A stretch of DNA of 32,000 nt from Candidatus Saccharimonadota bacterium (GCA_000503875.1 CP006913.1:60001-92000), one strand, 5' to 3'; positions 1-32,000 are shown, numbered from the stretch's first letter. Translations and numbers: made by a program. The notes: generated by a model from the letters alone, not told the origin.

Positions 1-112
1 AAAAGAAATAACAATACCAATTCCTGTCATGTAAATTTTCGCTCACCAGATGGTAAGATAGGGATACATACTATCAATTAACAATTAAAAGCTAACAGCT
101 AAGCACCAAAAA

Positions 113-1615
113 CTAACGTAAGAATTCAATAATTTTTGTTTCTCTAATTCCTGTGATTCTAATAATTCCAGGGTAATCAAGTTGGCTATCTATTTTTTCT
201 CCAATAGTTTTGAGAAGTTTTTCAAGTTCGAGATCTGAAATTTCTTTTGGATTTACATACACCATAATTTCTCTACCAGCTTGCATGATATGTACTTTAT
301 CTATACCAGGAATTTCATTAATAAGTTTTTCGAGTTCTCCCATTTTTTCAATGAAGAGTTCTTTTGTATTAAATCTAGCTCCAGGTCTAGAAGCAGACAT
401 AGCGTCAGCAGCAGTAACGATCCAAGCATAAGGATTATCGATAGGAACATCGTAGTGATGTGCTTCTGCAGCATTAACAATAATTGGATCCATTCCAAAT
501 TTTCTAAGAACATCAGCTCCAATTTTTGCATGAGATTCACCTGTATTAGCGATAATTTTTCCAATATCATGAAGTAATCAAGCCTTTTTTGCAAGTAAGG
601 TATCCAAACCAAATTCACTTGCGATAGCTTCACAGATTTTTGCTACTTCAACACTGTGTTGCCACAAGTTTTGACCATAACTAAATCTGAGATAATATTG
701 ACCAATCATTTTTACAATTTCAGGTTTCATCATAGGAATATTGAGTACAGTCAACGCTTCTTTTCCTTTTTCTGTATATAACATATCCAAATCACTAACT
801 ACTTGATTATATGTTTTTTCAATATAGAAAGGATTTATTTTCCCGTCTTTAACCAATCTTTCAAGTGTTGTTGCCGCAATATATCTTTTTTCACTATCAA
901 AAGAAGATAGTCTAACTACAAGAGGAGTATCATCAACAATCAATTCCACACCAGTCATTTTTTCAAAATATGAAATATTCCTTCCTTCTCTTCCGATCAA
1001 TTTTCCTTTGAAATCTTCGTTAGGAAGATCAACTGTTTTAGTAGTAAATTCACTTACCGAATCAACAGCAACCCTAGGAAGTGCCTTACTAATAATCATA
1101 GCTGCTTCTTTATCAGCTTCCTCTTTTTTGATATTTTTAAGTTTTTCAATAAAGGTCGTAAAATCATTTTGATATTCTTTTTCAATCTGATCCATCAATT
1201 GTTTTTTTGCTTCTTCTTTGCTAAGTTTTGCCATTTCAGCAAGCTTATTTACTTGTTCGTTAATTTTTTCTTCTAGATCTTTTTGTTTATCGTTGAGTTT
1301 TCCTTTTTCTTGCTCTAATTTTTCTAATTTTTCATCCATTTTTTCTTCTCTAGCAAGCAATCTATTCTGAATAACTTCCATTTTTTGTAATCTTTGGTCT
1401 TCGATTCTTTGTGCTTTTTCTTCAGCTTGTTCCATTAATTTTTCTACTTTTTTCTTTGCTTCTTCAACCATTTCTTCCTCTAATTCTTTAGCTTTATTCA
1501 TTCTTTCTTTAAATTGGATTGCTTTTTGAGTAAGGGTTCTTTTATAACCATAAAATCCTGCTGCTCACCCAAATCCTAATGCAAGCAGGTATCCAAGAAT
1601 AACAAATATGTTCAT
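113..1615 (-). CDS. rny: Ribonuclease Y (TM anchor + coiled coil + KH + HD), 500 aa under code 25
   Basis: Track ORFs 113..493 and 578..1501 share a frame. They are split only by TGA at 578-580, which sits in the HD motif A-G-LLHDIGK. Reading through a further TGA extends the frame to ATG 1613-1615 and adds the TM helix MNIFVILGYLLALGFGGAAGFYGY. The KH motif GREGRNISYFEKMTG and the HD region HSVEVA...HHYD are present. The stop is TAG at 113-115. Confidence 0.93.
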
Positions 1616-1656
1616 CGGTTTTTCAATATATTGAGATAAAAAAATCTATAGTAAAA

Positions 1657-1674
1657 TGTCCCTAAAAAGGGCAC
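1657..1674 (-). terminator. Possible weak intrinsic terminator downstream of gatA
   Basis: On the minus strand the sequence reads GTGCCCT-TTTT-AGGGACA followed by TTTTAC. The stem is about 6 bp with one bulge. It lies between the gatA stop (1736) and the rny start (1615). Confidence 0.3.
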
Positions 1675-1735
1675 GCAAATAAATATAGGATTTCAGTTGA
1701 GAAATGCAACGGGAAAATAATATTGTAGGAAATAT

Positions 1736-3151
1736 TTAATTTAATTTTTCCAAGATTCATCATAATTCTAACAGTTTTTCTTCTTGCCGTCTATCAGTCA
1801 TTAACTGGATTCCCATTGGTAACATTTCACCATTTTCTTCTATCATTCCTCATGGAATAGACATTGCTGGAATTCCTGCCATATTAGCCGGAATAGTGTA
1901 CATATCTTCCAAATACATAGTCAATGGATCATTGATTTTTTCTCCGATTTTTCCTGGGAGAGTAGGCGTTGTAGGGGTTATGATTGCATCATACTGTTCG
2001 AAGATCTTTGAAAAATCGGCCTTGAGTTGTTCTCTTGCTTGCTGGGCTTTGAGATAATATCCCTCATAATTCGCAGAACTCAAAACAAAAGTTCCAAGCA
2101 AGATTCTTCTTTTGGTTTCTTCTCCAAATCCTTCAGATCTTATATGTTTATAATAATCAAGAATATCTGGATATTTGGTTGTGTCATCTTGAAGTCCAAA
2201 TCTAATTCCATCAAATCTCGCTAGGTTGGTACTAACTTCAGCTGGCATCAAGGTATAATACATCGGAACTGCATATCCCATAATAGGCAAATCTATCTCT
2301 TCTATTTCCCATCAAAGCCCCTTAAGTTTTTTTATATATTCAAGAAATCTGGTTTTTATTCTCGGATCCAATCCTTCACCAAGTGCTTCTTTTGGCAACG
2401 CGAGTTTTGGTTTTTTTACGTCATTTTTATATGTCGGCTGTTGCCAAGTATCAGCTTCTGGGCAGCTTTGAGCATCGTGGGTATCGTAACCAGCAATCGC
2501 CTTCAACAAGATTCCAGCATCTTCAACAGTTTTGGTAATTACTCACACTTGATCCAAGCTAGAAGCCATAGATTGTACTCCATATCTAGAAACTCTTCCA
2601 TAGGTAGGTTTCAATCCTACGATCCCACAAAATGATGCAGGTTGGCGGACGCTCCCTCCGGTATCAGTTCCCAGTGCTGCAATGCAGAGATCTGCAGCTA
2701 CCGCTGCAGTGCTTCCGCCACTTGATCCTCCTGGTACACGGTTAATCCCGTGAGGGTTGATGGTTTTCCCAAAGTATGATGTCTCGGTACTAGAGCCCAT
2801 CGCAAATTCATCCATGTTGGTCTTCCCGACCATCAACCCTCCGTTTTTCTCGAGGGTCTCAAAACAGGTCGCACTATAAGGACTAACAAAATCCTTCATC
2901 ATCTTCGACCCACACGAACTAATATATCCCTTAGTCAAAATAATGTCTTTGAGTCCGATAGGGGCTCCATGCAAAGGTTTTGAAATCAAATCGTCGATAT
3001 GTGAATTTACATAGTCTTCATGAAATCTAACAAAGGAAAAAGTCTGACTATTTTTTTCTTTGGCTTTATTTAGATAATGATTAATAACATTTTTGGCATC
3101 TAGAGTTCAGTCGTTAATTCAATCAATATATTGTTTCAAGGTAAGATTCAT
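1736..3151 (-). CDS. gatA: Glu-tRNA(Gln) amidotransferase subunit A (amidase-signature enzyme), 471 aa
   Basis: Joins track ORFs 1850..2290, 2312..2509 and 2543..2989, all in one frame, through TGA codons. One of these is the TGA at 2543-2545 inside [15 protein letters not shown]. The amidase signature [16 protein letters not shown] and the motif PIGLKD are present. The N-terminus is [27 protein letters not shown] from ATG 3149-3151. The true stop is TAA at 1736-1738, after ...[27 protein letters not shown]. Confidence 0.85.
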
Positions 3152-3177
3152 GATTTTTTCAAAAAATAAAAAATTAT

Positions 3178-3232: not shown

Positions 3233-3607
3233 TTATTTAAATAATTGGAAAAGAATGTTTGATGAAGAGCTTGTTGTTTTTATTGGAGTTGTAGTAGTTT
3301 TTGTTGTAGTGGTTTTGGTGATAGTAGTTTTTGTTGTTGGTTGAACTATTACTGGTTCTTGTATTTCAGGGTCCGTAACAATAATTTTCTTCTCTTCAAT
3401 AATTTCAGAAACATCTCCCAAACTTTCTTCAGAGTCAGAAACAACATTATCTTTAACAGATTTTAATGATTCTACTGTTTCTTGAGTTGTTGTAACAAAA
3501 TCTTCCTTGAGTTCATCAGCTCATTTTCTATCAATTAACCAATAAATTCCATAAGCAATTCATAAGATAATTACAATAAATAAGATTCTTTTCAAGAGAG
3601 TAGACAT
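3233..3607 (-). CDS. Small single-pass membrane protein with Thr/Ser-rich (mucin-like) C-terminal tail, 124 aa
   Basis: Track ORF 3233..3421 extends through two TGAs to ATG 3605-3607. The N-terminus is MSTLLKRILFIVIILGIAYGIYWLIDRK (TM helix). An acidic linker follows, then TTKTTITKTTTTKTTTTPIKTTSSSS. The stop is TAA at 3233-3235. Confidence 0.6.
3292..3337 (-). repeat. 16-bp exact direct repeat (TAGTAGTTTTTGTTGT, offset 30 bp) underlying the Thr-Lys tail
   Basis: Identical 16-mers occur at 3292-3307 and 3322-3337. The offset is 10 codons, and they encode the repeated (T)TTKTT units. Confidence 0.7.
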
Positions 3608-3632
3608 CTTTTTTTTAGTGAAAAAATAAATG

Positions 3633-5150
3633 TTATTTTCAATGATCATATAAATCAATTTCTATCATATTACCAATGTTTTCTTGGTGTGTTTCTTCTT
3701 GTTTTTTTACTATAAAAGAGAAGGTAAAAATACTTCATTTTCATAATTCACTTTTTACAGTAATATCTCCGCCCATATGTTGACTAATTTTTTTTGATAA
3801 CGATAGTCCTATTCAAGTTCATCAGTATTCTCTAGTGCTTGAATTATCAACCTGTCTAAATCTTTCAAATATAATATCTTGTTTGTCTAATGGAATTCAT
3901 ATTCCCGTATCTTCAACTGTTATATAAATTTTTTGAATACCATCTATTTCTTCTATTTTTGGACAAGCGATCAAAATACATCATTCCTTCGTGAATTTTA
4001 TAGCATTTCAGATAAGATTGTTAAGGACTTGTTGTATTTTTATTTCATCTCATAAAACAATATCATTTAAATTATAAATATCCTTGTCTATTATAATAGA
4101 AATATTAGAACTACTTTTGTTTATAGAATGATCTTGTAATTCGACGACATCAGTAATAATGCTTTTTATTGATATTGGTTTCTCAATTAAAGAGCTCATA
4201 CCAGCTTCTAATTTAGCCATATCTAAAATATTGTTAATTAGTTTTAATAAATCATAACCAGCTTGATTTATTTTACTTAAGAATAATTTATTCTTTTCAT
4301 TTGATTCTTGTCTCAAAAGAATATCGGAGAATCATATAATTCAATTTAAAGGAGTTCTTAGTTCATGGGACATATTTGCTAGAAAATCATCTTTTAATGT
4401 AGATGTTTCTTCTGCTTTTCTCGCAAGCTCTTCGGCCAATTGTTTTTGCTCTTCAAGAATAGTCTGTTGTTCAATAAGTGATGTAATATCTATAGCAACA
4501 CCCATAATACGTTTTTGTCCATGTTCTACAATCGGCGTTTTTTTGAGTATTATAATATGTTCCCCATCTTCAAGTGGTAAAGAGATTATCTCTTCAAGAG
4601 TTTCTTGATCATCGTTTTCTTCAACAGTATCCAGAGAATTTTTATTTGAGGCTAATAAACGATTACGTATATCATCAGAAAGAAGAGGAAACAATTCTTC
4701 ATCAGTTTTATCTAAGATTTCTTCACTTCTTTTTCCAATCATTCTAGCGAAACTCTCATTTACTCTTGTATAAGTATTATCATAACTCATTATATAGAAT
4801 CAAATTCCAGGAATGTTTTTGAGTAATAGTTCAAGATTTTCTATGTTGAGTTCAAATTGTGTGGCCTGTTCTCTAGATTCTTTCAAACATTTTTTAAGAT
4901 CATTATTGTTTTTTTGCAGATGTTTATTGATATAATATCCAACAGCCGCACTTATCCCAGCCAATCACATAGTCTCTAAAGGACGAAATCAACTACTTTC
5001 GATTCATTGAAATACTATATCAGCACCAGGAATAGAACAAAGCGCAAGGTATATTTTTGTTTGTGAAGAAAGTGAAATATTTTGTATTTTATTTATTTTT
5101 TTCTCAAGAAAAGTTGATCATTCAGCGTTATGTCTCATAATCTTCATCAT
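3633..5150 (-). CDS. Sensor histidine kinase (N-terminal hydrophobic segment, PAS-like region, HisKA, HATPase_c), 505 aa
   Basis: Joins track ORFs 4050..4316 and 4341..4790 with extensions on both sides. The H-box is [23 protein letters not shown], with the two Gly encoded by TGA at 4341-4343 and 4332-4334. The N box is QQVLNNLIGNAIKFT. The G boxes are VEDTGIGIP and GGTGIGLSLSKKISQHMGGDITVKSELGKGSIFTF. The start is ATG-ATG at 5145-5150. The stop is TAA at 3633-3635. Confidence 0.9.
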
Positions 5151-5213: not shown

Positions 5214-8200
5214 TTATTTTTTATATACTTCAAGGGCTTTGGTAAATTCATCAGCACCTGGAGGGAGTTGTTGTCGTAGTTCTGGACTATATTCAATAAG
5301 TACAGAAGCTCAATTAAAAATCATATTTCTTCTTTGTGTCTTAATACTATTTTCTCCTCAACTTACATAAAACCATTTTGATAGCGTAGATCTTTTATTA
5401 TTTACAAGATTTTCTATTCATCATCCAATAAGAACTCATTTAACATGAAGACCACCAGCATCACACCACTTTTTATTTAGGTCTTTATTTATGATAGAAT
5501 CAGCAGAAAAATTACTTGCTACAAAGATTCCTTTTACTGTTTGTGGTTTAGTACATGTACTATTTGAACTTTCATTAAATGAAATTGTTCAGTTTTGGAC
5601 AATAAACATACCGTTGACAGAAATATCTCCCTTGATTTCAAGATTTGCATCTTTTATAATCAGAGTGAAAGGTTTTGTTATATTTGTAGAGTTTTCTATA
5701 GTAATAGTAGTTCAATTACCTTTTCCATATAAGATATAAATATCCTTATTAGGTACTTTTTTCGCAGATGTTATTCAATCTCTTTCTAGGTTTTCTGGGT
5801 ATTTTGTAGTAGATACAGCTAGTTTTTCCATTCTATAAACAAAATTTTCAATCATTGGATTGATTACACCAAATCCGGCATATTCGCTTTCAGACAATAC
5901 CATTACACTAGCAAGATCAGTTTTGTTTACTAAAGGATCTCATTTTAACATTTCTTTAAAATTTTTGAGATCGATAGTTGTTGCTTTTGGTGTTATCCCA
6001 AAGGCACTCTTTTGTACAAGATATGGTTTGGTAATAGTGAAGTTAGTTTCACATGCATTTTGTAATTCTGTTTCTTCCCAATCACAACCATTCTCATCAC
6101 AAGCACAATATTCATAAGTTACTTTATCCAAACGAATTTTATGTTCTCCCAAAATATTTTCATCAAAAATTCTAGATGAAGCGAGTGTGTCAAAATTTAT
6201 ATAATAGTTTCCAAAAGCATTTCTCCAATACTCAGGATAAAAATTTTTGAAAAGTAAATCTTTGTCAAGTTGTGTATCAGAACAATCAATATTATTAAAT
6301 ATTTCTTCAGAATCTTCTCCAGGTTGTTGTAATGAGAATCAACATTTCATAGTAGATTTTTTAATTTTATTCTCATTATCTTCATCACATTTTGAAGAAG
6401 AAATAATATTGCTTGTATCATAAATTCTCCACCAGAAAGGCATAATTTCATTGTTTTGGACAGAGATATTAGCATTTCCTATAGAAAGACAAGATCCAGC
6501 AGGTTCATCAAGAGTACATCCTCTTTTACAACCATTTCCTTCTCATCTAGTTTCCCCTCAATCACATTGTTCATATCATTCTCTTTCTCCATTTCCACAA
6601 ATACCTACGAATCCTTCATCCAAAATAACATCATCGTCATCGCATTCAATTCAATTTATAGAACAGCTAATATTCATTTCATGTTCATCAAAATCATCTT
6701 CATCATATTTACATGTATATGTCATATGATCACCATTTTTACTATCTCCATCACCATTACCACAATCAATTTCAAGGGTAGCTTCAGAGTCCTCATTGTC
6801 TATAGAACATTCTACTTTTACTGTTCATTCTTCTTCATCAGCATCAAAAATAACAACATTAGATTCTAACCCTAATTCACAAGAAAGTACAGAACGTTTA
6901 CAAGCTTCATTAGTATTATCATTTCCTACAGTACAAGAAATTCTTGATCTTTCAGCTTCATTAGTATTATCATAGCTACATGTTGTAGAGAAGAAACCAA
7001 AAGGATCGGCAAATCAAGTCCCAGAATCTCAATTACCACAATCAATAGTTACAGGAGTAAATGTATTGGTATATTGACCAAGACATCTTGCAATAACTCT
7101 TGTAGAGCTGCTATTTTCAGGAGTTATATGCAAATCAACACAACTAGGATCTTTTAATGTGATAACAGCGTCGCTACAATCACCAGTTACACCATTAATT
7201 ACAACACAAGCTCTATTTGTTATACGTTTAGTGACTAAAGTACAAACATTTTGAATTTTTTCACAATCTTGATCTAGATTAGTAACTCCTTGTCCATCAA
7301 GTTCACATTCTTCATTTCTTGTTAATTCACCATCTCCACATACATAAGGTTCGTCTATAGTAAATGTTCTAGAAATTCAAGTATTATTGTAGGCTATTTC
7401 AATAGTAGGAGAAAGTGGAGTAAAATTTCTATAAGCAATACGTCCAGTAAGAGTAATTGATCCTTGTTGGTTAACTCAGATTGATAAGTTTTGATTATAT
7501 GTTTCAAAAGTAAGTGCTCAAGGATTTCTTACTGTAATGGTTGTGTTAGCTGGTACATTACCATTGTTTACATAAGAAATAGTAAATTGAATTAAATCCC
7601 CAGAAACAGCTTGAAGAGGGGAATTCAATAACGGCTTTGTTCGATTAAAAGCAGAAATAGTAAAAGCAATATTATCATACGCAGCCACTGTTCATGTAAT
7701 AAGAGAAATATCATTTCCTGTAGTTACTTGCGCTGAAGGAGTAGAAATACGAGCTTGACTAGAAAATTCTGTTCCAGCACTAAGAAATTGTCTGAGTGTT
7801 CAAGTTACTACAAGCATTCCCGTAGATCCTGCTGAAATTGATTTTCCTAGATTCCATTCTGTTTGAGTTGCTTCGATGCTAGATGGTAATGCAAAATTAA
7901 CCATAGGATTCCAAGCAGATGCAAATCAACTATTTCCATAAGTTATAATATAAGTAACGGTATCTCCCATTTTAAATCCACTAAACGGCAACATAATATG
8001 ATTAATATATACGTCAGCCAATCCTGGAAGGTCATTGGTAATTGCAAATTTATTGTTAGTAAGATCTAGATCTATCCCTGTAAAAGAAACTTCTCCAGAA
8101 AGACTAATACTCGTACCTTGCATAGGATAATCATTTAAAATCGAAGTATACGAAATAGTTTTTTCTTCGCCTCCAGCAAGCATTATTCCACTCAAAATAG

Positions 8201-9686
8201 TGGTTGTTTGTGAACTTTGATTTGCTGATGGATAGAGATTCAAAGTTATATTATTGGCTGTTTTTTCTCCTTTATTTGACAATTTAATATTGTAAGTAAG
8301 TGTTGTTCATTTATTTATAGTAACTAATTCATTAGTCAAATTTGCTTCTATAGCAACATCAGCACTTTTTACAAAGGTATAGCACAATCATGATAAGCTA
8401 TTATTATTTCACGTAGATGTTTCATTACTTGCACCAATAGTTCAAGAAAAACAAAATCTGGTTCCTATTGGATAATTTTGGTTTACTAATCACGTAACAA
8501 CCACAGTATTTATTGTTTCTGGCTCAAGGTCAGGAAGCGAAAATACAGTAGCAATTTGGTTAGTTCCACTAATAAGTGCAGTTAAAGAAACATTTTCGGC
8601 TCTTGCATTTCCTTTATTGGTATAGGTCATAGAATATCATAGTTCCTCTCCATTTGCCTCAGGTTCAGAGGAAATTTTTTGGAGATTTTCCAAGATAATA
8701 TCTATTACAGTTGGTAATGTATATGAAGTAACAGCAATATTATCAGAAAAGATTAATTCACGACCAGCTTGGATACTTCCAGTAGTAGTAATTACAGATC
8801 CAGCAGGAGGTGTTGATAATAATGGTGCAGCAAGTTTATATGCTTTGCTTGCTCCTGGAGCCAATGATCACAAATCCCAAGAGTAAATTCATTTACTTAC
8901 TTGTGAAGTAGTCAATTTGTCTTCCTGATAAGTGAGAATTGGTTCTCCCAAAAAATTTCCCAGAGCACTTGTAAGTTTTACAGCATCAGTACTTTCTTTA
9001 GATCCATTATTTGTTACAAGTATTTCATAAAGAGCTTGTTGTTGAGAAAATATTGGTTTAGGATCAATAATATTTTGTGTTATACTATAATTTGCGGTAG
9101 GAAGAATATAAGTAACGGGTTCATTTATACATGTAGAAGACCCAAAAGTTCTAAGACAAGCACTAGTTTCTATTCTATCAAATAATAAAGAAGAAGATAC
9201 AATTTCTCCTGTTACAATAATGTTTTTTGTTTCCGATACATTAATAAAATATTTTGGATTAATAAATCCATTTTGTAAAGCAATCAATCCTCAATTACTC
9301 AATCAATCTGAAGTAAGTTCAAGTATTCTTATTCTAGGATTATTATATGCGGGTGGTAATCTTAATTCAAAATATTTTGGGATAAGATTGTTTTGTATAG
9401 TAAATTTGAAAGTAACAATGCTTCCAGAAACAGCAAAAGAAGAAACAACTCTATTTTTTATAAGCGTATTATTTGCTAAACACGTAGTATTATGAGGAAT
9501 ACGAAGAGAATTTTTTGTACAAGAACAAAATCCATCAGGATTATTACAAGATTGGTATTCCTGACAAATAAAATTTCCCTCTGCATTTTGTGTACAATCG
9601 GTATATTCTAAGTCCTGCGCAAAAATTACTCCAGAAGCCAAGAGTCCAATAAGTACAGTAATACTACCAAAGATTTGTTTTTTCAT
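5214..9686 (-). CDS. Giant secreted surface protein, 1,490 aa: Cys-rich N-terminus, DUF11-like repeat region, Cys/Asp-rich modules with CGDG/CGNG...ECD repeats, unknown C-terminal domain
   Basis: I checked every codon of this frame from 5217 to 9686. There is no TAA or TAG, and there are more than 30 in-frame TGAs. It unites track ORFs 5940..6152, 7926..8282, 8637..8864, 8889..9287 and 9303..9725. The signal peptide is MKKQIFGSITVLIGLLASGVIFA-QD from ATG 9684-9686. DUF11-like strings such as GDLIQFTISYVNNGNVPANTTITV occur. Cys-rich repeats include CGDGELTRNEECELDG and CGNGEREGYEQCDGGETRGEGNGCKRGC. The stop is TAA at 5214-5216. Confidence 0.85.
6903..6973 (-). repeat. Exact 20-bp direct repeat (AGCTTCATTAGTATTATCAT, offset 51 bp) inside the giant surface-protein gene
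   Basis: The copies lie at 6903-6922 and 6954-6973. They encode two adjacent 17-aa units, each containing DNTNEA flanked by Cys (CSYDNTNEAERSRIS / CTVGNDNTNEACKRSVLS). Confidence 0.8.
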
Positions 9687-9709
9687 TCGTATATGAAATA
9701 GGTAAAGGT

Positions 9710-11563
9710 TTATTTGATGGTTCATTTAATTGTTATAGTTTTTTCTTCGAATCCTTGTAAACCACTTATTTCCCAAACAAGAACAGGACGTTCATTGATA
9801 TTTCTTGGAGCAGGATCTGAGTTCAGAAACCTCAAAGAATCTGGCCAAAAATCCTTAATTATAAAAGGTCCAACAGCTGTTGATCATAGATTTCTATAAG
9901 TAATGCTATATTCAACTTCATCTCCAGGTCCATAACCAAACGTAGTAACTTTCTTTTCGATATCTATTCACGCCATTGATTGTACAATAGAAACGCTAGC
10001 ACTTGTTGGTATTTGCTTATCTCCTCCAGCGTCTGTGTAATAAATTTTTCCTGTATTACTATATGTCTTTCCTGCACAACTTGGATTAGTACTTGCCTGT
10101 CCAGAAAAATTTATAATAAATGTTTGATTTGCTGGTAATCATCATAGAGGCCAATCTGTCAAAGTTCCATTTGAATTTGGTGTTACAGAAGGTGTTGATT
10201 GAGAACTTCCTGTTACAAAAGAGAAACAATCTGGCCACATATCTTGTACGCGAACATTGGTAATAGTACTCGTTGTACCATTATTAACTCTGATAGTAAA
10301 ACCAACTGTTTGTCATAATTGAACACTACTTGGAGTAGCTGTTTTGGAAATAGTTACCTCACCGCCAACAGAACATAGTACTTGTTCGTTTGTATATCAA
10401 TTAAGAGGTGTTCAGTTACTTATTGCTGACCAGAATGCATGATTTCGTCCGTCATTACAAGAATTAAATTTTGCGGTAATACGTATATATCCGTTTTGTC
10501 CTGCAGATAAGCTAAATCATGTATAGAGAACTACAAAATTTCAGCTTGCATTAGAACCAGTTTTGAAATAAGTAGGTCAAGTAACTCATACAATTTCACT
10601 AGAAATATATTCAAATCCACTTGGAAGAAAATAATCTTCAATAGCAATATTTTGTACTGTTTGTGTTGATGGGTTTGAGATATTTATTCTAAATTCAACA
10701 GTATCTCATGGGGTATGTAATTGAGAATTAACAAGAATTTTATCAACTACAAGACTTCCCGTTTCTGTCCCACTTCAAATTCCTGTACAATCAGTTTTAC
10801 ATTTTCCTGCTTGTCCATTTTGTGCTCAATCATCGCAGACTTCATTTGGTTTAATCGAATTTCCATGCCAAAGCAAAAATATTCATCATTGAGTTGTGAT
10901 TCATCAATTTCCATCACTTGTTCCTGTTTGTTTATCAATCACACCATCACCACATCTTGCTACATAATAATTAGTACAAGATATTTTTTTGGTAATGCTT
11001 GGATTTATTATTACGTTTAATGTTCCATTATGAAGAGAAAGGTCATTAGCTCTTATATAATAATAATTTAATAAGACGCCATTTGCATTTTGGACAATAG
11101 ATCTTTCGTTGTTAAATGTTACAAATTGTCCTGCAGCTTGATTTCTTGTTGTATTTGCAGATCATAATAAAGTGGCTCCAGTAGCGTCAACAGTCAATAT
11201 ATTAGAACTATCTGAATCTATGGTTGTAGATGGTACAAAATTGGAAACGTAAGGAAATTTAATATTACCAACAAAAGTAGATTGATTATATCCTCTTACG
11301 TACGTTTCTGTTTTATCAAAAACATAGCTTACAGGTCATTTTGGTTGACCAACACGAAGATATACAGGAGATCAACTATAAAAAGCTAGATCTTGGGTTA
11401 TATCACAAGTTCAATTGTAAATAGTTGTTTCTCGGTTTAATGTTCTGTTTTCGTTTGAACTACTTGGAACATCACCAATTACATTACTAGCAAATGTTAT
11501 GTTAGTTAATCAAACTATCATACTTATAATTAATATTGCTTTGTAATAATTTGTCTTTATCAT
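9710..11563 (-). CDS. Secreted protein, 617 aa: N-terminal unknown domain, CGDG...CDDG Cys-rich module, three DUF11-like repeats
   Basis: The frame was checked codon by codon from 9713 to 11560. It has no TAA or TAG and many TGAs, so the standard-code track shows no ORF in this frame at all. The signal peptide is MIKTNYYKAILIISMIVGLTNITFA-SN. The Cys-rich module is YYVARCGDGVIDK...NEVCDDGAQNGQAGKCKTDC. The DUF11-like repeats are LVVDKILVNSQLHTPGDTVEFRINISNPSTQTVQNIAIEDYFLPSGFEYIS, VTISKTATPSSVQLGQTVGFTIRVNNGTTSTITNVRVQDMWPDCFSFV and IDIEKKVTTFGYGPGDEVEYSITYRNLGSTAVGPFIIKDFWPDSLRFL. The stop is TAA at 9710-9712. Confidence 0.85.
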
Positions 11564-11592
11564 GACAAGGGAAATAAGGGTAAAAGATGTTA

Positions 11593-19706: not shown

Positions 19707-20149
19707 TTTTTTTGAGCTATGAGATTATCTAGTATAGCATTTGCAACAGACATTTCTTTTTGAGCATCAAACATATCTTCTATTTGTTGTTCGTCTGTTA
19801 AATTTCCTTTGTTAGCAATATTTGACCTAAAGATTCTATTAGATAATCAAAACCAGGCATCAGCTTTCGGATAGTTATTTAGTTTTTTATAAAAACGTTT
19901 GTTTAATGTTTCTTCATTTTCTTTTGATGGTATAGTAGGTACAGCCATATCAAGTATAGGTATATAGATTCCTCTATTTGCTTCATCAGACATAGTAAAT
20001 GCATCCATAACATCTTGATGAATGTTATTGAAATTTTCTAAATGTTCTATAGCAGATCTTCTCAAGAGAGATGCTAAATGTTGAAAAGATCTTTGTTGTT
20101 TTTCATTTAAACGAATATGAGATGATGGGGTATTATTAGGTAAATTCAT
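19688..20149 (-). CDS. Hypothetical protein, 153 aa
   Basis: Track ORF 19847..20149 extends through TGA at 19847-19849 to TAA at 19688-19690 (...ADAWF-G-LSNRIFRSNIANKGNLTDEQQIEDMF...AQKNKKKGS). It starts 14 nt after the ftsK stop, so it is probably co-transcribed. Confidence 0.65.
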
Positions 20150-20163: not shown

Positions 20164-22299
20164 CTATAAAAATATATCTCTAGGTTTTGCTCAATCTTGT
20201 GGTCCAATGAGACCTCTTTCTTCCATTTGATCCATAATTCTCGCTGCACGAGCAAACCCTACTCAAAGTTTCCTTTGTAAAAGAGTTGCAGAGGCTTTCC
20301 TTGTTTCTGAAATCACTTGGATAGCTTGTTCTATAAGTTCATCATCATCTCAATTACCACCTCCAAAAAGATTATCTCATGTTTCAAATTTACTTTCTAG
20401 CATTTGGACGATTTCTGGGTTATAGATATCTTCTTCAGTAAGTCAACCCATGTATTTATTTTTGAGCGTTTGAACCACTTTTTCGATTTCTTCAGTAGAG
20501 ACAAAAGGCGCTTGAATTCTAATTGGATGTTTAGTAGAAGGATCTATATAGAGCATATCTCCTTTTCAAAGTAATGTTTCTGCTCATTTTCTGCCCAAAA
20601 TTGTTCTACTATCAATCTCAGAAACAACACCAAATGCCATTCTTGTAGGAATATTTGCTTTGATAAGCCCAGTAATAACATTTACTGAAGGTCTTTGCGT
20701 AGCTACAATCAGGTGAATTCACACAGCACGGGCTTTTTGGGCTATACGCGTGATACATGTTTCTACATCTTTTTTATTACCAGACATCATCATATCTGCC
20801 AATTCATCTATAACAAATACAATACGATACATTTTTTCTCCAATAATTTTACTATTATATTCATCAATATTTTTGACTCTTTTTTCTTTGAGAATTGAAT
20901 ATCTTTTCTCCATTTCATTAACCGACCACTTCAAAAGTTTCAATGCTTTTTCTGATTCAAATACAATAGGCGCCAATAGATAAGGTAGTCCTGAATATAA
21001 TTCTAATTCAACTTGTTTAGGGTCAACCATCAGAAATTTTAATTCAGAAGGTGTATTTTGATACATAAGACTCAAAATAAAATCATTTACTCCAACTGAT
21101 TTTCCAGATCATGTTGCTCCCGCAACAAGAAGATGTGGCATAGATTCCAATGTTTTGATAATAATGGAACCATCAATTGCTTTACCAAGCGTCAAATTTG
21201 TATCAGAACTTTTGGTTGCATCTTGAAATTCATTTGTGGAAAGAATATCTGCCACTTTTACCATAGATGGTTTTGGATTTGGAATTTGGATTCCCACGCA
21301 ATCTGTTCATGGGATCGGTGCTATTATTCTAAGTGATTTAGATTTCAAAGAAAGAGCGATATCATTAGTTAGTCATTCAATAGTAGCTATCTTAATTCAC
21401 GATTCTGGTTTAATTCTTATTTGGACTATAGATGGTCATATATCAAATCATTCAATCAGAATAGGCACATTAAATTCTAATAGTTTACTTTGTAAGGATT
21501 TTGCTTTTTCCATAAGGAATGCTTCATCAATGGCTATTTTTTGGTCTCCAGCTTCCAGAATATTTAGCATAAATGTTGGTTTCTCTCCAGAGAAACTAAT
21601 CATAGGTCTTGGTTTTCTTTCTTTTTCTTGAAGTTTTTCGTCTATTTTTCTTTTGAGAAGAGTTGATACAAAAGAGCGAGATATATTTTGAGGAGTATAT
21701 TCTTCTTCATCATCATCTTCGTCAATTTTTTGTTTTGGAATTTTTTTTGCAATGTCATGATCTTGCTGTCTAATTGGTTTGTTTGGTTTTAGCTCTTCTT
21801 TAATATTGATATTTATTCTTGGCAACGAGAAATTGAAGGCATACAAAAGCCGCCCCACCAAGAGAATTAATAAAATAATAATAAACACTTTAACCGCCAA
21901 AGCATTGCTTCCAAAGACAGTATCCAAAAGATAAATCAGTGGCCAGGAAATATATCATCAAAGTTTTTCGTACTGTGTAGAATCTCAATCTATGATAGGG
22001 AAATTCAAAACAGCGGAAATTAAAATCATTATAACAAGAAATTGTTTTATCAAGAGCTTAATAAGATGTCCTTTGGACAAAATCATTATTCCTACAAAAA
22101 TACAAAGTCCAAAAAAAAGGAGTAATCCAATTTCACCAAATGGTATACTAGCGTATTCTTTTAAAAAAACAAAAAGAGGAGAGCTTTCTGCCAAATAAAA
22201 TGAAAAAAAGAATATTCATCCCAACGCGATGAAAGAAACTCAGAGTTTATATTTGTTGAGAATTATGCTTTTGCTTTTTCTTCTTTTCCCCAAAACATC
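20164..22299 (-). CDS. ftsK: DNA translocase FtsK (N-terminal TM domain, acidic linker, RecA-like motor, gamma winged helix), 711 aa
   Basis: Track ORFs 20719..21075, 21109..21297, 21448..21927 and 21985..22194 share a frame, and all gaps were checked. The Walker A is [17 protein letters not shown], with the Gly encoded by TGA at 21109-21111. Also present are [22 protein letters not shown] and the gamma domain [26 protein letters not shown]. The stop is TAG at 20164-20166. The start at ATG 22297-22299 is the first ATG after the upstream TAG and is moderately certain. Confidence 0.9.
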
Positions 22300-22363: not shown

Positions 22364-23350
22364 TTATTCAGCGCTTTCTACCTCCTTAAGCTGTTGGCAA
22401 ACTGACCTAAAAGTACATCAGATGCATTTTTTTCCACTACTGGTTCTCGTAAATGCGGTATGGTTTAGTGGTTGGTTTCTCTCGGCATCTTGTTCTACAA
22501 GGAATTGCTTTTGATATTCAACATCTTCCAAAATTTTTGTGATAATATTGTCTATATCTTCTTGTTGAATAGTTCCTGATTTTTCGTGCAATGATGGGAG
22601 ATAAACTTCGTAAACATCGATATGACGATTTTCAATTTGAGTATTTTTTTGTTTTAATAAAATTTTGAGTGCATACATACGTAATTGATCAGTAATTCCA
22701 GAGACATCTAGACTCTCTTTTCCTGATTTCCAATCTAAGATAAGGTAATTATTATCACCAAACATCAATCAAAAATCTGGACTTGCCAATATAGATATAT
22801 TTTCGAGTCATGGAATATGGCGTACATCAACTTTCATCATTTCAAAATTCGGACGACGAGGATCTTCTATATAAATATGATGTCATTTACGAAATCGTTG
22901 TTCAATACGTTTGTGGTAATCACTTGCTATAAATGCTTCAAGATTGGCAACAATTTTTTGGATAACTGGAGCAAGAGCGCTATCGTCAATTTCTTTATAG
23001 AAATGTTCTGATAATCAAAATTCTACAAAATCTGTATAATCATTGGCTTTTGATATAGCAAATGTTTCTTCCATTCCTTTACTAACAAGATCAATAATAG
23101 CGTTTTTATTTGGAATAGGTCCATTATCTAGAATATGTTTTTTGAGTTCAAAAAGATACAAAGAAAGTATTTTATGGGTCATTTCTCACATCCACATATC
23201 CAAGCTTTTGAGCTTTCTAAGAATTTTAGTGGTTTTCCAAAGTTCAGGATATTTTCTTTTGAGTCCATCACTGTAATAGGTAAAAAAATATTTCTTTTGA
23301 CAATATTCCAAAACCGTAATTCTAGTGTTTGACCAAGAAAGTGATGTCAT
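22364..23350 (-). CDS. PD-(D/E)XK nuclease, Cas4/RecB-like, with 4-Cys (Fe-S type) cluster, 328 aa
   Basis: Track ORF 22418..22768 was extended in both directions, and the frame was checked codon by codon. The N-terminus is MTSLSWSNTRITVLEYCQKKYFFTYY (first Cys). The nuclease core is SPDFG...YLILDWKSGK...QLRMYAL. The C-terminus is GKKCI-G-CTFRSVC (CxxCx5C, with the Gly encoded by TGA at 22418-22420). The stop is TAA at 22364-22366. Confidence 0.75.
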
Positions 23351-23518: not shown

Positions 23519-26152
23519 ATGTGCTTGTTTAAAAAGAAAAAAAAGTATGTATATTCCTTTGATGAAGCTAGAGGAATAGGAAAAGACATACTTGGTGGAA
23601 AAGGAGCAAATCTCGCTGAAATGGTATCTATGGGATTACCAATCCCTCAAGGATTTACAATCTCTACGGAAGCTTGTGATTTATACTACAAAAACAACAA
23701 AAGTAATTCTCAAGAAGTTTTGGCTGAAATAGAAGCAAAACTCCAAAAATTAGAAAAACAAACAGGTAAAAAACTTGGAGATTCTCAAGATCCTCTTTTG
23801 GTTTCTGTAAGATCTGGAGCAAAAGATTCTATGCCTGGAATGATGGATACTGTTTTGAATCTAGGACTTAACGATGAATCTGTTGAAGGACTTATCAAAA
23901 AAACAAACAATCCAAGATTTGCATGGGATAGTTATAGAAGATTTATCCAAATGTTCGGTGATGTGGTAATGGAAGTTCCTCACCACGATTTTGAACATGC
24001 ATTGCAATCAGTTAAAACAGAAAAATGAGTAAAATTAGATACAGAACTTGACACAGAAGATCTTAAAAAAGTTGTGAAACTCTATAAAGAAGCTGTTCAA
24101 AAAGCTACAGGAAAAATGTTTCCAAATAGCGGAAGAGAACAATTGGAAATGTCTATTAACGCCGTTTTCGGTTCTTGGAATAATGACAGAGCTATTATTT
24201 ATAGAAAATTAAATGATATCAAAGGATTGCTTGGAACTGCAGTAAATGTACAAGCAATGGTATTTGGAAATATGGGAGAAACTTCAGGTACGGGAGTATG
24301 TTTTACCAGAAATCCATCAACCGGAGAAAATAAATTTTACGGAGAATATTTGATGAATGCACAAGGTGAAGACGTAGTTGCAGGTATCAGAACGCCATTA
24401 GAAATCGCTGAACTTGATAAACAAATGCCAGATTGCTACAAAGAATTAGTAGAAATCTATCATGGGTTAGAAAAACATTACAAAGATATGCAAGATATGG
24501 AATTTACTATTCAAGAAGGTAAACTCTACATCCTTCAAACAAGAAATGGAAAAAGAACTGCTGCTGCAGCTGTTAAAATGGCTGTTGATATGGTAGCTGA
24601 AGGATTGATTGATGAAAAGACAGCAATCTTGAGAGTGAAACCAGAACAATTAGATGCTTTGCTTCACAAACAAATTGAAGCTAGTGGAAAGAAAACAGCA
24701 GATCTTTTGACAAAAGGACTTCCAGCATCACCAGGTGCTGCGGTTGGACAAATCGTTTTTACTGCTGAAGCTGCTCATGATCGAGCTGAAGAAGGTAAAA
24801 AAGTAGTTCTTGTAAGAACGGAAACATCACCAGAAGACATTCAAGGAATGCATGCATCTCAAGGTATCTTGACAGCTAGAGGAGGTATGACCTCTCATGC
24901 TGCTGTAGTTGCAAGAGGAATGGGAAAATGTTGTGTTGCTGGAGCAAGTGAAATTACAGTAGATGAAAAAGCCAAAACACTTATTATCAATGGAAAAACA
25001 TATAATGAAGGAGATATGATGACTTTGGACGGTTCAACAGGAGAAGTTTTTGCTGGAGCACTCAAAGTAGTAGACCCTGAATTAAGTGGTGATTTCGGTA
25101 CTTTGATGTCATGGGCAGACAAATATAGAACAATGGGAGTGAGAACAAATGCTGATACTCCACATGATGCTGAAGTTGCGAGAAAATTCGGTGCTGAAGG
25201 TATCGGACTTTGTAGAACAGAACACATGTTCTTCGCTGAAGATAGAATTAAAGCAGTTAGAGAAATGATCTTGTCTGATAATCTTGATGGAAGAAAGAAG
25301 GCGCTTGCAAAATTGCTTCCTTTCCAAAAAGAAGATTTCGTAGGATTATTTAGAGCTATGGAAGGTTTCCCAGTAACAATCAGATTTTTGGATCCTCCTT
25401 TGCATGAATTCTTGCCAACTGCAGAAGAAGATATCGTGGAACTTTCAAAAGAGATGAATGTTGATCTTAATAAGCTTAAGGAAAGAATTGATAGTCTTCA
25501 TGAGTTCAACCCAATGCTTGGACACAGAGGATGTAGATTGGTTATTACCTATCCAGAAATTGGAGAAATGCAAACAGAAGCAGTGATTTCAGCTGCATGC
25601 GAACTTGCAAAAGAAGGTAAAAAAATAATTCCTGAAATAATGATTCCATTGGTTGGATTCAAACAAGAATTAGATTTTAATCTGAATATTGTTCATAGAG
25701 TCGCTAAAGAAACTATGGCTAAATACAATACAACGATCGAATACAAAGTAGGAACTATGATCGAAGTACCTAGAGGTGCAGTTACTGCTGATAAGATTGC
25801 TGAATCAGCTGAATTCTTCTCATTCGGAACAAATGACCTTACACAAATGAGTCTTGGTTTCTCAAGAGATGATGCAGGTAAATTTATCAAAGAATATGTA
25901 AACCAAAATATCTTCGAAAAGGATCCATTCCAAACATTGGATCAAGAAGGAGTAGGTGAACTAGTAAAGATGGCTGTAGAAAAAGGTAGAAAAACAAGAC
26001 CAAACATCAAACTAGGAATCTGTGGTGAACATGGCGGAGATCCAGAGTCAGTTAAATTTTGTCATAGAATCGGATTGACGTATGTAAGTTGCTCTCCATT
26101 TAGAGTACCTATCGCAAGATTAGCAGCCGCACACGCAGCATTAAATAAATAA
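23519..26152 (+). CDS. ppdK: Pyruvate, phosphate dikinase, 877 aa
   Basis: Track ORFs 23519..24028 and 24074..26152 share a frame and are split by a single TGA (24026-24028). That codon falls at ...[18 protein letters not shown], where Clostridium symbiosum PPDK has EEK-G-VHFDTDLTADDLK as I recall it. Also present are [10 protein letters not shown], the catalytic [22 protein letters not shown], and [12 protein letters not shown]...[10 protein letters not shown]. The stop is TAA at 26150-26152. Confidence 0.97.
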
Positions 26153-26206: not shown

Positions 26207-28096
<1,890 letters not shown>

Positions 28097-28383: not shown

Positions 28384-28971
28384 ATGAAGAAACTAATGTA
28401 TTTGGTTTCCACATTGATTATAATCAGTTTGGTAACCCCTGTTTTTGCACAGGTAGAAGCAACAGACACCACAGGATGGGCTACTGCAATTAATTGGTCT
28501 AACAATTCAAAAAGAGACCTAAAGAAGCAAGTTAGCAAAAAAATGAACGAAGAATTAAAGAAGTACGCTGAAAAGTGGACTAAAGAATTCCTTGATCAAC
28601 CTAGGAAAACGGCCATTGAAAAAGTAGCAATTGATTTAAAAATCATTGCCGAACAATTCCATAAATTATATGCTGCAGCCTCAGCTGCATATATATTAGG
28701 AAAAAAGGGTTACTTCCAGAAGGAAGAAGTTGAGCCATTTCCTTTCGATCCTCGAGAAGAAGTTGATAAAGAAAATTATCTTATCGGCGAATTCTTATAC
28801 GAAGAGAGAGAAGGTTTGCGCTATTATATTAGCCAAGGGAATAGAGGTCTTTCAAACTACCTCGATGCCCCATCTTACTTAGTGACGGGAAATCGTAAAG
28901 TCAAAGGTGGTCAACAGATCATCAATGAATACGCAGCCCAGATCGTAAGAAGGTGGGAAAATGCTTATTAG
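28384..28971 (+). CDS. Hypothetical secreted protein, 195 aa
   Basis: Intact track ORF with no TGA. The signal peptide is MKKLMYLVSTLIIISLVTPVFA-QVEA. It is followed by a GC-rich hairpin terminator. I recognised no domain. Confidence 0.8.
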   Translation: MKKLMYLVSTLIIISLVTPVFAQVEATDTTGWATAINWSNNSKRDLKKQVSKKMNEELKKYAEKWTKEFLDQPRKTAIEKVAIDLKIIAEQFHKLYAAASAAYILGKKGYFQKEEVEPFPFDPREEVDKENYLIGEFLYEEREGLRYYISQGNRGLSNYLDAPSYLVTGNRKVKGGQQIINEYAAQIVRRWENAY

Positions 28972-29018: not shown

Positions 29019-29025
29019 CTCGTAT

Positions 29026-29802
29026 CTAAAATTTTTTCATTCCATCTTCATATCACATATCAAAAATAGTTTTCATTTTCTTTTTATTAGTACTCAAAAC
29101 AGGAATATCTAAATCTCTATAAAATAAATTATCTACCAAATCAAATTTTTCACTATCTCTAGCTCTCATCAATATTTCATAACTCAATGAAAGATTATCA
29201 AGAATCGAAGCTGTTTTTTGATTTTCTATAAATTTATTGAGAAATATTCAAATAATATGATTAGATGGATGGTCTTTCTTTGCTAGGTCTACAGGAAAAT
29301 TGTTGATAAGACCTCCATCCATCAGTGTATTTCATTCAAACGAAATTGGCGGAAAGACGCCCGGAATAGACATACTTCCAAGGAGAGGAATAATCAGATT
29401 GTCTTTTTTATAAAGTATATATTTACCCTTATTACAATCTGTCACTCCAATAGCCAAAGGAATTGTTAATTCTCAAAAACTTTTGGGTAAGTCTTCTACA
29501 AAGATTTTGTGTATAAAGTCATTTTTTAATAGGCTTTTTTTGGAAAGGAGATTTAGTGTTTTGAATCCAAAAAGTGATGTTTTAGAAAATCTTTCAAAGA
29601 TCCAATCCGCAGAATATCCAGCACTTCGATAAGCGCCCAAAATGGCTCCTGCACTAACGCCATAGAGCATAGAAATATTTTTTTTCATACCACGTTCTTC
29701 TAGTGCTTTCAAAATTCCTAATGCATAAAATCATCTTACTCCGCCTCAAGAAATAACCAAGGTATAACGTTTTTTTCAAAATAATTTATGAAGAAGGTGC
29801 AT
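29026..29802 (-). CDS. Patatin-like phospholipase, 258 aa
   Basis: Track ORF 29473..29712 was extended in both directions. The oxyanion motif is VIS-G-GGVR-G-FYALG, with both flanking Gly encoded by TGA (29746-29748 and 29731-29733). The nucleophile elbow is G-V-S-A-G-A. The catalytic Asp motif is LMDGGLINNFPV. The start is ATG 29800-29802. The stop is TAG at 29026-29028. Confidence 0.88.
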
Positions 29803-29817
29803 CAAAAAAATTAGAAT

Positions 29818-30867
29818 TTAAAGCATATGTTCTTGTTGCAAAATCCCAACCACACCAATCATAGCTGCATTATCAGTTGAATATATTTTTTTAGTAGGTT
29901 TAACCAAAGAAAAATTCAGATTTATATAATTTTTATGTTTAATTAATCCATTAGCATATTCCCAAAGTCTATCATTTGCAGAAACTCATCATGAAATCCC
30001 CAAAGTTTTTGCTCCATATTTAAGTCAGGCTCTCGCCAGTTTCTTTGCCAATACCTCAACAACAGATTCTTGAAATTCATAAGCAATCTCACAAATCAGA
30101 TCTTCTGTCAGCGCTATATTTTGTTGTTCAAAATTTTTTAATAAGATGGAAACTTGGCTTTTCATTCACGAAAAACTAAAATCAAAGGATTCTTTCGCAA
30201 GAAAAATTCTTTTAAAACTAACGGCATTATCCAATATATCGCATTTGTTACATTCTACATATTCCAGAAGTTTTGTTTTATGCTTTTGAGCCATTTCTCC
30301 AATCCAAACTCATCCTGGGTAAGGACCGCCAAGCATCCTTGAAACCTTATCAAAACATTCACCAGCTGCATCGTCCAATGTTTTTCCTAGATGTTCTATG
30401 TGAAATTTATTTTGGTCCTCCGTGATAAAATATAAATCATTATGTCCACCACTTGCTGTGAGGACAACCATAGGAAATTCAATATCAGTTTTGTTTCTTT
30501 CCAAAAGTAAGGAAAAAATATGTCCATAAATATGGTTCACTTCGTATAAAGGTTTATTATATCGCTTGGCAAGAGTCGCTCCGACAGCTTTCCCTACCAC
30601 GAGTGATCCAGGAAGTCCTGGGTGGGTAGTTACACTGATAGTATCCACATTCTCGATTTCTCCCCACCCAACTGCGTGTAACACTCACAATATTTTTTCG
30701 CTATGTAATCTCGAAGCAATTTCAGGCATTACTCAACCATATTTTTGATGATCAGGCACTTGAGAGTAAGCGAGGAGTTGGTCAACAGAAAAATGATCTC
30801 CATCAAAGGAAATTATCCCAATCGATGTATCGTCACAGCTTGTTTCTATTGCCAAGGTTTTGATCAT
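29818..30867 (-). CDS. tsaD: tRNA N6-adenosine threonylcarbamoyltransferase TsaD, 349 aa
   Basis: Track ORF 30310..30684 was extended in both directions. The N-terminus is MIKTLAIETSCDDTSIGI. Also present are YG-G-VMPEIASRLH (TGA at 30733-30735), VTTHPGLPGSLVVG, HIYGHIF, ASGGHN, FSFSGMKS, GISGGVSAN and STDNAAMIG. The stop is TAA at 29818-29820, 15 nt before the patatin start. Confidence 0.92.
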
Positions 30868-30970
30868 GGTATTAATGTTTATATATTGAAACATATTAAG
30901 TTGATTTTTATTTATTCGCTCCGCTGGGATACTTTTTGCTACCAGGTCAAAAAGTAACCAAAAACCCCTC

Positions 30971-31013
30971 GTGAGCTGTTACATTTTCTTAACCTAAAAA
31001 TGTAAACGCTCAC
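30971..31013 (-). terminator. Long-stem intrinsic terminator downstream of the nrdG-like gene
   Basis: GTGAGCTGTTACATTTT (30971-30987), a loop of about 8 nt, then AAAATGTAAACGCTCAC, giving 15 of 17 paired positions. On the minus strand it is followed by GAGGGGTTTTTGG. It begins about 20 nt after the TAA at 31034-31036. Confidence 0.6.
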
Positions 31014-31033
31014 CTATTTTAATAGTTTGTTTC

Positions 31034-31744
31034 TTACTTCCTAATTCCAACATGATCTACATATTTTTCTGCGATGATTTTAAATTCTTCGAGTTCTTCT
31101 TCATTAAACGGTTGTCCTCAGAAATTAGGATCCAAGGTATTCCCTCCGATATAGTTTTGTAAATAATAATGTTTTGCTCCTCTAATAAAATGCGCCATAC
31201 TTTCGATATCATCAGCGGTATGCATACCTTTGATTACGGTTGTTCTATATTCATATTCTATATTTCCTTCCAATAACATCTGTAATAACTTTTGATAGCT
31301 CAAGAAAAATTCTGGTTTTTGTGGTAAACCAACAGCATCGTCATAACTATAAATAGCATGTTTGAGATCGATCGCAACATAATCCAAAATTCCATCCTGA
31401 ATCATTCTTTTGACTATTTTATAATCTCTTCCGTTTGTATCGAGTTTTACTTTAAATCCCATAGATTTAATTCTTTTTGCAACATCATACAAATCTGTCT
31501 GCAATGTAGGTTCTCAACCACAAATACTAACTCCATCCAAAAATCATTTTCTGCTTTCCAAAAAATTGAAAAAAACTTCTTCAGGAATAAGGTCATTTTT
31601 GAAGAGCATCATTTTTTCTGGAAGCACACATTCTGGATTATGACAAAAATGACAACGAAAATTACATCATTGCGTAAAAATAACACAAGCTATGTGTCAT
31701 GGATAGTCGACTAATGTTGATTTTTGGATTCAGGCTATATGCAT
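31034..31744 (-). CDS. nrdG: Radical-SAM activating enzyme, anaerobic ribonucleotide reductase activase (NrdG) family, 236 aa
   Basis: Track ORF 31118..31504 was extended in both directions through TGAs. The N-terminus is MHIAGIQKSTLVDYPGHIACVIFTQGCNFRCHFCHNPE (CxxxCxxC radical-SAM cluster in the NrdG-type context). Also present are GVSICGGEPT and KLDTNG. The stop is TAA at 31034-31036. Confidence 0.75.
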
Positions 31745-31795
31745 AATTTCTTTGTAAGGATTGCTATGTTATCTTCAATCTAAAATCCTGTTTTT

Positions 31796-32000
31796 TTATA
31801 TAGAGCTTGCTATGATTTTTATCCTTTCGATAGCTTTATCAATATTTCTCATTCCCTGTCCTACAGGATAGAAGGTAGGATATACCTTATATTTTATTCA
31901 ATGTATTTCAAATTGTTCATAATCATTTTTTTGATAGTCAGAAACCTTGATATTTTTTCTCAGCAACAAAGAACTTACTTGATTCCCAAACGAAACAATA
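31796..32000 (-). CDS. 3' end of an unidentified gene (last 67 codons plus stop); the 5' part lies beyond the window
   Basis: The minus frame is open from the window edge to TAA at 31796-31798, with one TGA. It reads ...IVSFGNQVSSLLLRKNIKVSDYQKNDYEQFEIHGIKYKVYPTFYPVGQGMRNIDKAIERIKIIASSI. I recognised no motif. Confidence 0.5.

Follow-up and report, generated by a model that had tools for sequence, protein, structure and literature searches.

Glycine at UGA and tryptophan at CGA in a chromosomal stretch of the candidate division SR1 bacterium RAAC1_SR1_1

Bacteria of the SR1 and Gracilibacteria lineage have an NCBI translation table of their own, table 25, in which UGA stands for glycine, only UAA and UAG serve as stops, and CGA and CGG are arginine codons. 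Table 4, the code of Mycoplasma and Spiroplasma, also turns UGA into a sense codon in small AT-rich genomes, where it is assigned to tryptophan. Here we analyse the meaning of UGA, CGA and CGG in a stretch of 32,000 nucleotides (CP006913.1:60001-92000; hereafter the window), for which a preliminary description had proposed that UGA encodes glycine throughout. The reassignment of UGA is already known, having been published for this very genome in 2013. The closed 1.18 Mb genome of RAAC1_SR1_1, with a guanine plus cytosine (GC) content of 0.31, uses UGA for glycine, its genes are split under table 11, and its tRNA(UCA) gene is nearly identical to those in other SR1 genomes (Kantor et al. 2013, PMC3812714). 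This is a separate tRNA(UCA), and not a tRNA-Trp with a changed anticodon as under table 4 (PMC3812714). Campbell et al. 2013 and Rinke et al. 2013 are credited with the finding that UGA means glycine in SR1 and Gracilibacteria. The genome has since been placed in the Absconditabacterales as GTDB species UBA5124 sp000503875 (Shulgina and Eddy 2021, PMC8629427).

The window resembled the table 25 system in its use of UGA for glycine, in having only UAA and UAG as stops, and in its AT-rich composition. We are nearly certain of the following reading: the window belongs to the chromosome of SR1 bacterium RAAC1_SR1_1, or to one near-identical to it, in which UGA is an ordinary glycine codon, presumably decoded by tRNA(UCA), UAA and UAG are the stops, and CGA, and probably CGG, encode tryptophan.

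Provenance and reading frames of the window

The window comes from the chromosome of RAAC1_SR1_1, a bacterium of candidate division SR1 (Absconditabacteria), or from a population genome essentially identical to it. One of its genes, encoding a DUF1987 protein, contains no TGA and thus provided a code-independent anchor for comparison; its product matched exactly both AHB40893.1 (P148_SR1C00001G0078, SR1 bacterium RAAC1_SR1_1) and HCY21446.1 (GCA_003543185.1). The RAAC1_SR1_1 contig that carries AHB40893.1 measures 1,177,760 bp. RNase Y was 100% identical to AHB40884.1 (G0069, RAAC1_SR1_1) once both of its TGA codons were read as glycine. RNase Y is the first gene of our model and the 164-aa DUF1987 protein the tenth, in agreement with the locus tags G0069 and G0078, and the window covers roughly genes G0069 to G0087. 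At the nucleotide level, the window was 100% identical to contigs of two Logan assemblies and 99.995% identical to a contig of GCA_003543185.1 over 20.5 kb. The lineage given in the preliminary description as of Gracilibacteria/Absconditabacteria type could be sharpened to SR1 RAAC1_SR1_1 by the two protein matches. The closest species-representative genomes bear the label 'Candidatus Peribacteria', which at first pointed to a lineage outside SR1; this was ruled out by the same matches.

The GC content of the window was 32%. Under table 11, 46 open reading frames (ORFs) of at least 100 aa were found over both strands, while the use of TAA and TAG as sole stops produced long ORFs with a maximum of 1,759 codons, 19 of which, measured from stop to stop, made up 96.6% of the window. 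Codons were counted from the first ATG of each of these 19 genes. The resulting 10,025 codons included 181 in-frame TGA, amounting to about one quarter of the glycine codons, and not a single in-frame TAA or TAG, of which approximately 580 would be expected by chance in random sequence of the same composition. All ten TGA positions named in the preliminary description were indeed TGA in the frame of the gene concerned, in the peptide context quoted. Its statement that every gene terminates at TAA or TAG also held, with 15 genes ending in TAA and four in TAG. It had further put the coding sequence hidden by the standard code at about 14 kb, and in-frame table 11 ORFs of at least 60 aa left 14,250 nt of the 19 genes uncovered.

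The amino acid at TGA

Eight proteins of the window, with an X placed at each TGA, were aligned to the sequences of solved structures. Opposite TGA, the best solved homologues carried glycine at 35 of the 49 aligned sites and tryptophan at none (binomial P ~1e-28 for glycine against a background of 7.5%; counts for each protein in Table 1). BLOSUM62 scores summed over the aligned TGA sites came to +189 with TGA as glycine and to -109 with TGA as tryptophan. The preliminary description had placed TGA on an invariant glycine in eight genes, and the motif positions that it cited faced glycine, apart from the first histidine kinase site, which was valine in one of three homologues. The pair of TGA codons in the histidine kinase H-box lay opposite G/G, G/G and V/G, and 'invariant' slightly overstates the first of these two sites. 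The TGA codons in the DnaK motifs GIDLxTTNS and DNKSLxTF were opposite G in all three solved structures, as were the TGA of TsaD in YGxVMPE and those of GatA at residues 203 (the cited SLDQVx motif) and 280. In patatin, both TGA codons of xGGVRx were opposite G in four of four solved structures. The Walker A TGA of FtsK faced G in three of three solved structures and in all 77 standard-code homologues described below. For PPDK, the TGA in EKxVKLD was opposite G in Clostridium symbiosum PPDK, the four alignments listed being variants of one protein, and the claim of invariance for this gene is therefore backed by one distinct homologue. RNase Y had no match among the solved structures; in a relative whose TGA had been translated as tryptophan by its source, the residue within AGLLHDIGK was still G.

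FtsK allowed the comparison to be made column by column. A scan of species-representative genomes for FtsK yielded 80 loci, of which the 77 using the standard code were aligned. Mean glycine frequency in this alignment was 0.63 in columns with TGA in the window gene, 0.57 in columns with GGN and 0.034 in the others, and seven of the 13 TGA columns were glycine in 76 or 77 of the 77 homologues. The TGA columns were as rich in glycine as the GGN columns, and TGA thus behaves as an ordinary glycine codon. Tryptophan frequency in the TGA columns was 0.0. Log2-odds summed over these columns were +32.6 for glycine, -24.3 for serine as the next best residue and -51.9 for tryptophan. A local BLAST of the genes of a 51 kb region against the standard-code ORFs flanking the 77 FtsK loci gave three matches only, too few for a wider census of columns.

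Curated NCBIfam profiles were then used to score the proteins with TGA read as glycine and with TGA read as tryptophan. With glycine, RNase Y, PPDK, DnaK, GatA and NrdG attained equivalog scores: RNase Y reached 469 bits against TIGR03319 (cut-off 454), PPDK 1,428 bits against TIGR01828 (cut-off 843) and DnaK 845 bits against PRK00290 (cut-off 648). GatA scored 538 bits against TIGR00132 as glycine (cut-off 481) and 530 as tryptophan, and NrdG 190 bits against TIGR02495 (cut-off 131) and 169, respectively. The corresponding pairs were 241 and 197 bits for the histidine kinase with a BarA-type profile, 388 and 357 for FtsK, and 294 and 267 for TsaD with TIGR03723. Replacing glycine by tryptophan therefore cost 8 bits in GatA, 44 in the histidine kinase, 32 in FtsK, 27 in TsaD and 22 in NrdG, and the comparison of TGA with profiles that the preliminary description had called for thus favoured glycine by a total of 132 bits over five proteins.

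Related genomes provided a further test of the codon itself. The closest species-representative genomes were L005, with 88% FtsK identity, and L004 and L006, with 67%; in-frame TGA was present in all three. At the TGA sites of the window, their orthologues had TGA 40 times, GGN 20 times, other codons eight times and TGG never, and over all aligned gene pairs TGA was paired with glycine codons 162 times. The single TGA of PPDK was GGT in the closest related genome. The more distant L007 and L008 (45-48% identity, GC 42%) had no in-frame TGA in FtsK and carried glycine at nine of 12 and ten of 13 aligned TGA sites of the window, respectively. The presence of TGA in L004 to L006 and its absence from FtsK of L007 and L008 indicate that the recoding is restricted to one clade, in agreement with published work. 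L004 to L007 are labelled 'uncultured Candidatus Peribacteria bacterium' and L008 'uncultured bacterium'; on L004 to L006 the Peribacteria label looks wrong, given their in-frame TGA at glycine sites and their 67-88% FtsK identity to RAAC1. The FtsK of L005 is split into two ORFs (L005_2 and L005_9) even with TGA as a sense codon; the split may stem from a frameshift, from an error of assembly or from a genuine disruption of the gene.

The use of TGA was uneven among the genes of the window. In PPDK and DnaK together, five of 126 glycine codons (4%) were TGA versus 176 of 611 (29%) elsewhere (Fisher P = 4.6e-11). Both genes are expected to be highly expressed, and their avoidance of TGA suggests that decoding of this codon is less efficient than that of GGA or GGT. 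From the literature, UGA would be decoded by a tRNA-Gly with anticodon UCA, charged by glycyl-tRNA synthetase, and release factor 2 (RF2) would be absent, leaving release factor 1 alone to terminate at UAA and UAG. The glycine identity elements of such a tRNA would be G1:C72, C2:G71, G3:C70 and U73. The presence of RF2 is a marker of Gracilibacteria in which UGA is not reassigned (Shulgina and Eddy 2021, PMC8629427).

Three other accounts of UGA have to be weighed against glycine. Were UGA read as tryptophan under table 4, the meaning it has in Mollicutes and in several endosymbionts of insects, the low GC content of the window would be accommodated and its ORFs would be restored to the same lengths; public pipelines have in fact used table 4 for this and related genomes, and the database proteins P0003 and P0136 show W at TGA. 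This reading is extremely improbable, however, in the face of homologues that never place W opposite TGA, of FtsK columns empty of tryptophan, of the 132 bits lost by the profiles, and of relatives that exchange TGA with GGN 20 times and never with TGG. The preliminary description had named TGA on tryptophan columns as the outcome that would speak against it; tryptophan was found at 0 of the 49 solved sites and at a frequency of 0.0 in the FtsK columns. In contrast to table 4, UGA in the window is glycine. Under the standard code, TGA would mark true stops in the pseudogenes of a decayed genome, or assembly errors, and the GenBank annotation of the near-identical metagenome-assembled genome (MAG) GCA_003543185.1, made with table 11, does consist of short fragments only. 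Yet the frames are broken by TGA alone, with none of the roughly 580 TAA and TAG expected; independent assemblies carry the identical sequence; TGA falls on catalytic glycines of essential genes; and its positions are kept, or exchanged with GGN, in related species. We regard the probability of a standard code as negligible.

A dual role, in which UGA is mostly glycine and acts as a stop in some contexts, or in which U34 wobble makes it ambiguous with UGG, appears very improbable to us. It draws on the suggestion that tRNA(UCA) might decode UGA and UGG ambiguously (Shulgina and Eddy 2021, PMC8629427) and on the avoidance of TGA in PPDK and DnaK. None of the 19 genes needs a TGA terminator, however, alignments continue past TGA codons near C-termini, as in GatA, and no TGA gave a positive sign of termination. 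UGA as glycine, as put forward in the preliminary description, is thus borne out by the solved structures, the 77 FtsK homologues, the profile scores and the interchange of TGA with GGN.

CGA and CGG codons

The 10,025 codons of the window included 26 CGA and two CGG, while tryptophan encoded by TGG made up 0.5% of codons and AGA was the main arginine codon. Within the recoded clade, CGA was found opposite TGG five times and CGG opposite TGG twice, with one pairing with an arginine codon, in what is a small sample; AGA paired with arginine or lysine in 293 of 347 cases. The CGG at residue 79 of FtsK was TGG in L005 and L004 and CGA in L006. TGG in the closest related genome also replaced the CGA at residue 44 of the 617-aa DUF11 protein (11432-11434) and the CGA at residue 59 of patatin. 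Conversely, a tryptophan of the window FtsK at 20926-20928, in a column that is 95% tryptophan in the 77 homologues, was CGA in L006. In solved structures, the residues facing the CGG at residue 455 of GatA were W, F and F. Among 120 SR1-lineage sequences, 65 had W in this column and 51 had R, and W stood there in all eight of the closest listed SR1-lineage sequences other than copies of the gene; where R is given, the codon is plausibly a CGR that the source translated as arginine. In the gene for threonyl-tRNA synthetase (ThrRS), which lies 7 kb outside the window on this contig, CGA stood for the invariant W of GAYWRGD and was flanked by two TGA at glycine positions. RelA/SpoT in the flank also has a CGA at what we take to be the W of the 'DWL' motif of its relatives.

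CGA is read as tryptophan in this genome. This agrees with the code described for Absconditabacterales (Shulgina and Eddy 2021), in which CGA is tryptophan, as it was in the window and its flanks, and CGA and CGG are rare, as they were in the window; the published frequencies for this genome are 25.7 CGA and 1.6 CGG per 10,000 (PMC8629427). Codetta assigned UGA to glycine and CGA to tryptophan and left CGG as '?' in both GCA_000503875.1 and GCA_003543185.1 (Shulgina and Eddy 2021, PMC8629427). One tRNA(UCG), one tRNA(CCG) and a tRNA(CCA) are recorded as present in this genome (PMC8629427), and the published inference is that CGA and CGG would be read as tryptophan by tRNA(UCG) and tRNA(CCG) bearing tryptophan identity elements (Shulgina and Eddy 2021). 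The elements concerned would be G73 and no A20. Table 25, which assigns both codons to arginine, is contradicted for this genome by the window and by Codetta. Of the translation table proposed in the preliminary description, glycine at UGA stood on all tests, whereas the 26 CGA, and probably the two CGG, are tryptophan and not arginine. The two CGG codons of the window were both consistent with tryptophan, which would extend the published result slightly. We consider it reasonably probable that CGG is also tryptophan here, which would give three reassigned codons (UGA as glycine, CGA and CGG as tryptophan), and that its meaning may differ between very close relatives.

Several observations weigh against this reading as a whole. 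About 29% of the aligned TGA sites were opposite a residue other than glycine in the best homologue; glycine sites encoded by GGN behaved like the TGA sites in this respect. The low use of TGA in PPDK, whose GC content of 36% is richer than that of the window, could come from that higher GC content or from a foreign origin of the gene, and not from its expression. With ARAGORN, no tRNA was detected in the window, in its flanks of about 10 kb on either side (L084, L085) or, among the related loci, in L001 and L004 to L008, and no Rfam family reached its gathering score in the window. The evidence on CGG consists of two codons, left as '?' by Codetta in this genome and called arginine in a sister species that shares its GTDB genus (PMC8629427).

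Gene content and annotation of the window

The biology described here has been textbook-level for the lineage since 2013, and the value of the present finding is practical; the sole increment over published work is the weak, two-codon evidence for CGG as tryptophan. Annotation without TGA as glycine loses or fragments about half of the coding sequence, and table 25 still renders some 28 tryptophan codons of the window as arginine. In the table 11 annotation of GCA_003543185.1 (DPJE01000004.1; L002, L084, L085), RNase Y lies in pieces of 307 aa and 150 aa. Proteins from Logan and ENA, and some from NCBI MAGs, had been translated with table 4 and show W in place of G, as in P0003 and P0136. In one GatA column that is glycine in solved structures, 71 of 120 database sequences had W and 48 had G. 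Public databases hold many such mistranslated copies, P0003, P0136 and P0124 among them, and these can contaminate alignments and profiles.

The 19 genes are listed in Table 1. Intergenic spacers were very short and several gene ends overlapped, for example at 9710-9725; 17 of the 19 genes lay either on the minus strand or within short runs of genes that share a strand. The length of FtsK was counted from the first ATG, and its true start may lie further upstream.

Table 1. Genes of the window read with TAA and TAG as stops. TGA positions under remarks are those cited in the preliminary description; signal-peptide-like N-termini were judged by eye.
Product	Coordinates	Strand	Length (aa)	TGA codons	CGA or CGG	Stop	Gly opposite TGA in best solved homologue (of aligned)	Remarks
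RNase Y	113..1615	-	500	2		TAG		TGA 578-580 (A-x-LLHDIGK)
GatA	1736..3151	-	471	7	CGG 1787-1789	TAA	2/5	TGA 2543-2545
Small membrane or Thr-rich protein	3233..3649	-	138	2		TAA		No Pfam match
Sensor histidine kinase	3633..5150	-	505	17 of 33 Gly codons		TAA	11/11 (7z8n)	TGA 4341-4343, 4332-4334
Large DUF11-repeat protein	5214..9725	-	1,503	33	3 CGA	TAA		Pfam DUF11 E = 1.4e-14; signal-peptide-like N-terminus
DUF11-repeat protein	9710..11563	-	617	24	2 CGA	TAA		Pfam DUF11 E = 1.1e-27; signal-peptide-like N-terminus
Cys-rich protein	11593..12672	-	359	11	1 CGA	TAA		No Pfam match; signal-peptide-like N-terminus
1,739-aa protein	12719..17938	-	1,739	26	12 CGA	TAA		More than 1,700 codons without TAA/TAG
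Hypothetical protein	18155..19165	+	336	10	3 CGA	TAA		No Pfam match
SiaC/DUF1987-family protein	19171..19665	+	164	0		TAA		Pfam SiaC E = 3.7e-12
Hypothetical protein	19688..20149	-	153	1		TAA		
FtsK DNA translocase	20164..22086	-	640	17	CGG 21850-21852	TAG	8/14	Walker A TGA 21109-21111
PD-(D/E)XK nuclease family protein	22364..23350	-	328	6	1 CGA	TAA		Pfam PDDEXK_1 E = 2.7e-11
Pyruvate, phosphate dikinase (PPDK)	23519..26152	+	877	1 of 76 Gly codons	CGA 24782-24784	TAA	1/1	TGA 24026-24028
DnaK	26207..28096	-	629	4 of 50 Gly codons		TAA	2/3	TGA 28067-28069
Hypothetical protein	28384..28971	+	195	0	1 CGA	TAG		No Pfam match; signal-peptide-like N-terminus
Patatin-like phospholipase	29026..29802	-	258	7	CGA 29626-29628	TAG	3/5	TGA 29746-29748, 29731-29733
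TsaD	29818..30894	-	358	7	1 CGA	TAA	5/7	TGA 30733-30735
Anaerobic ribonucleotide reductase activase NrdG	31034..31744	-	236	6		TAA	3/3 (solved PFL-activase)	

The ORFs of the 138-aa protein and of the Cys-rich protein were open only with TGA as a sense codon. The precomputed table held no Pfam entry for the equivalent gene call of the 1,739-aa protein, which was omitted from our own Pfam and NCBIfam scans. In the flanks (about -8,150 to -770 and +32,830 to +41,410; L084, L085), RlmN, adenylate kinase, TruD, NrdD, RelA/SpoT and ThrRS were found, all with in-frame TGA, and NrdD adjoins the NrdG activase at the end of the window.

The three consecutive proteins encoded in 5214-12672 had in common a module rich in Cys and marked by the motif C-G-D-G/K (YVCGDGEL, VARCGDGVI and VATCGDKVI), and the C-terminal half of the largest of them was Cys-rich. 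Together with the gene at 12719-17938, their genes may form a cluster for the cell surface, in a lineage that would be episymbiotic or predatory. Two copies of an internal repeat, YIxTKEQNLQIRSYLL and YKxTRNQNIKIRNYLL, occurred near the C-terminal half of the hypothetical protein of 18155-19165, with one TGA-encoded glycine in each copy and three CGA codons between the copies.

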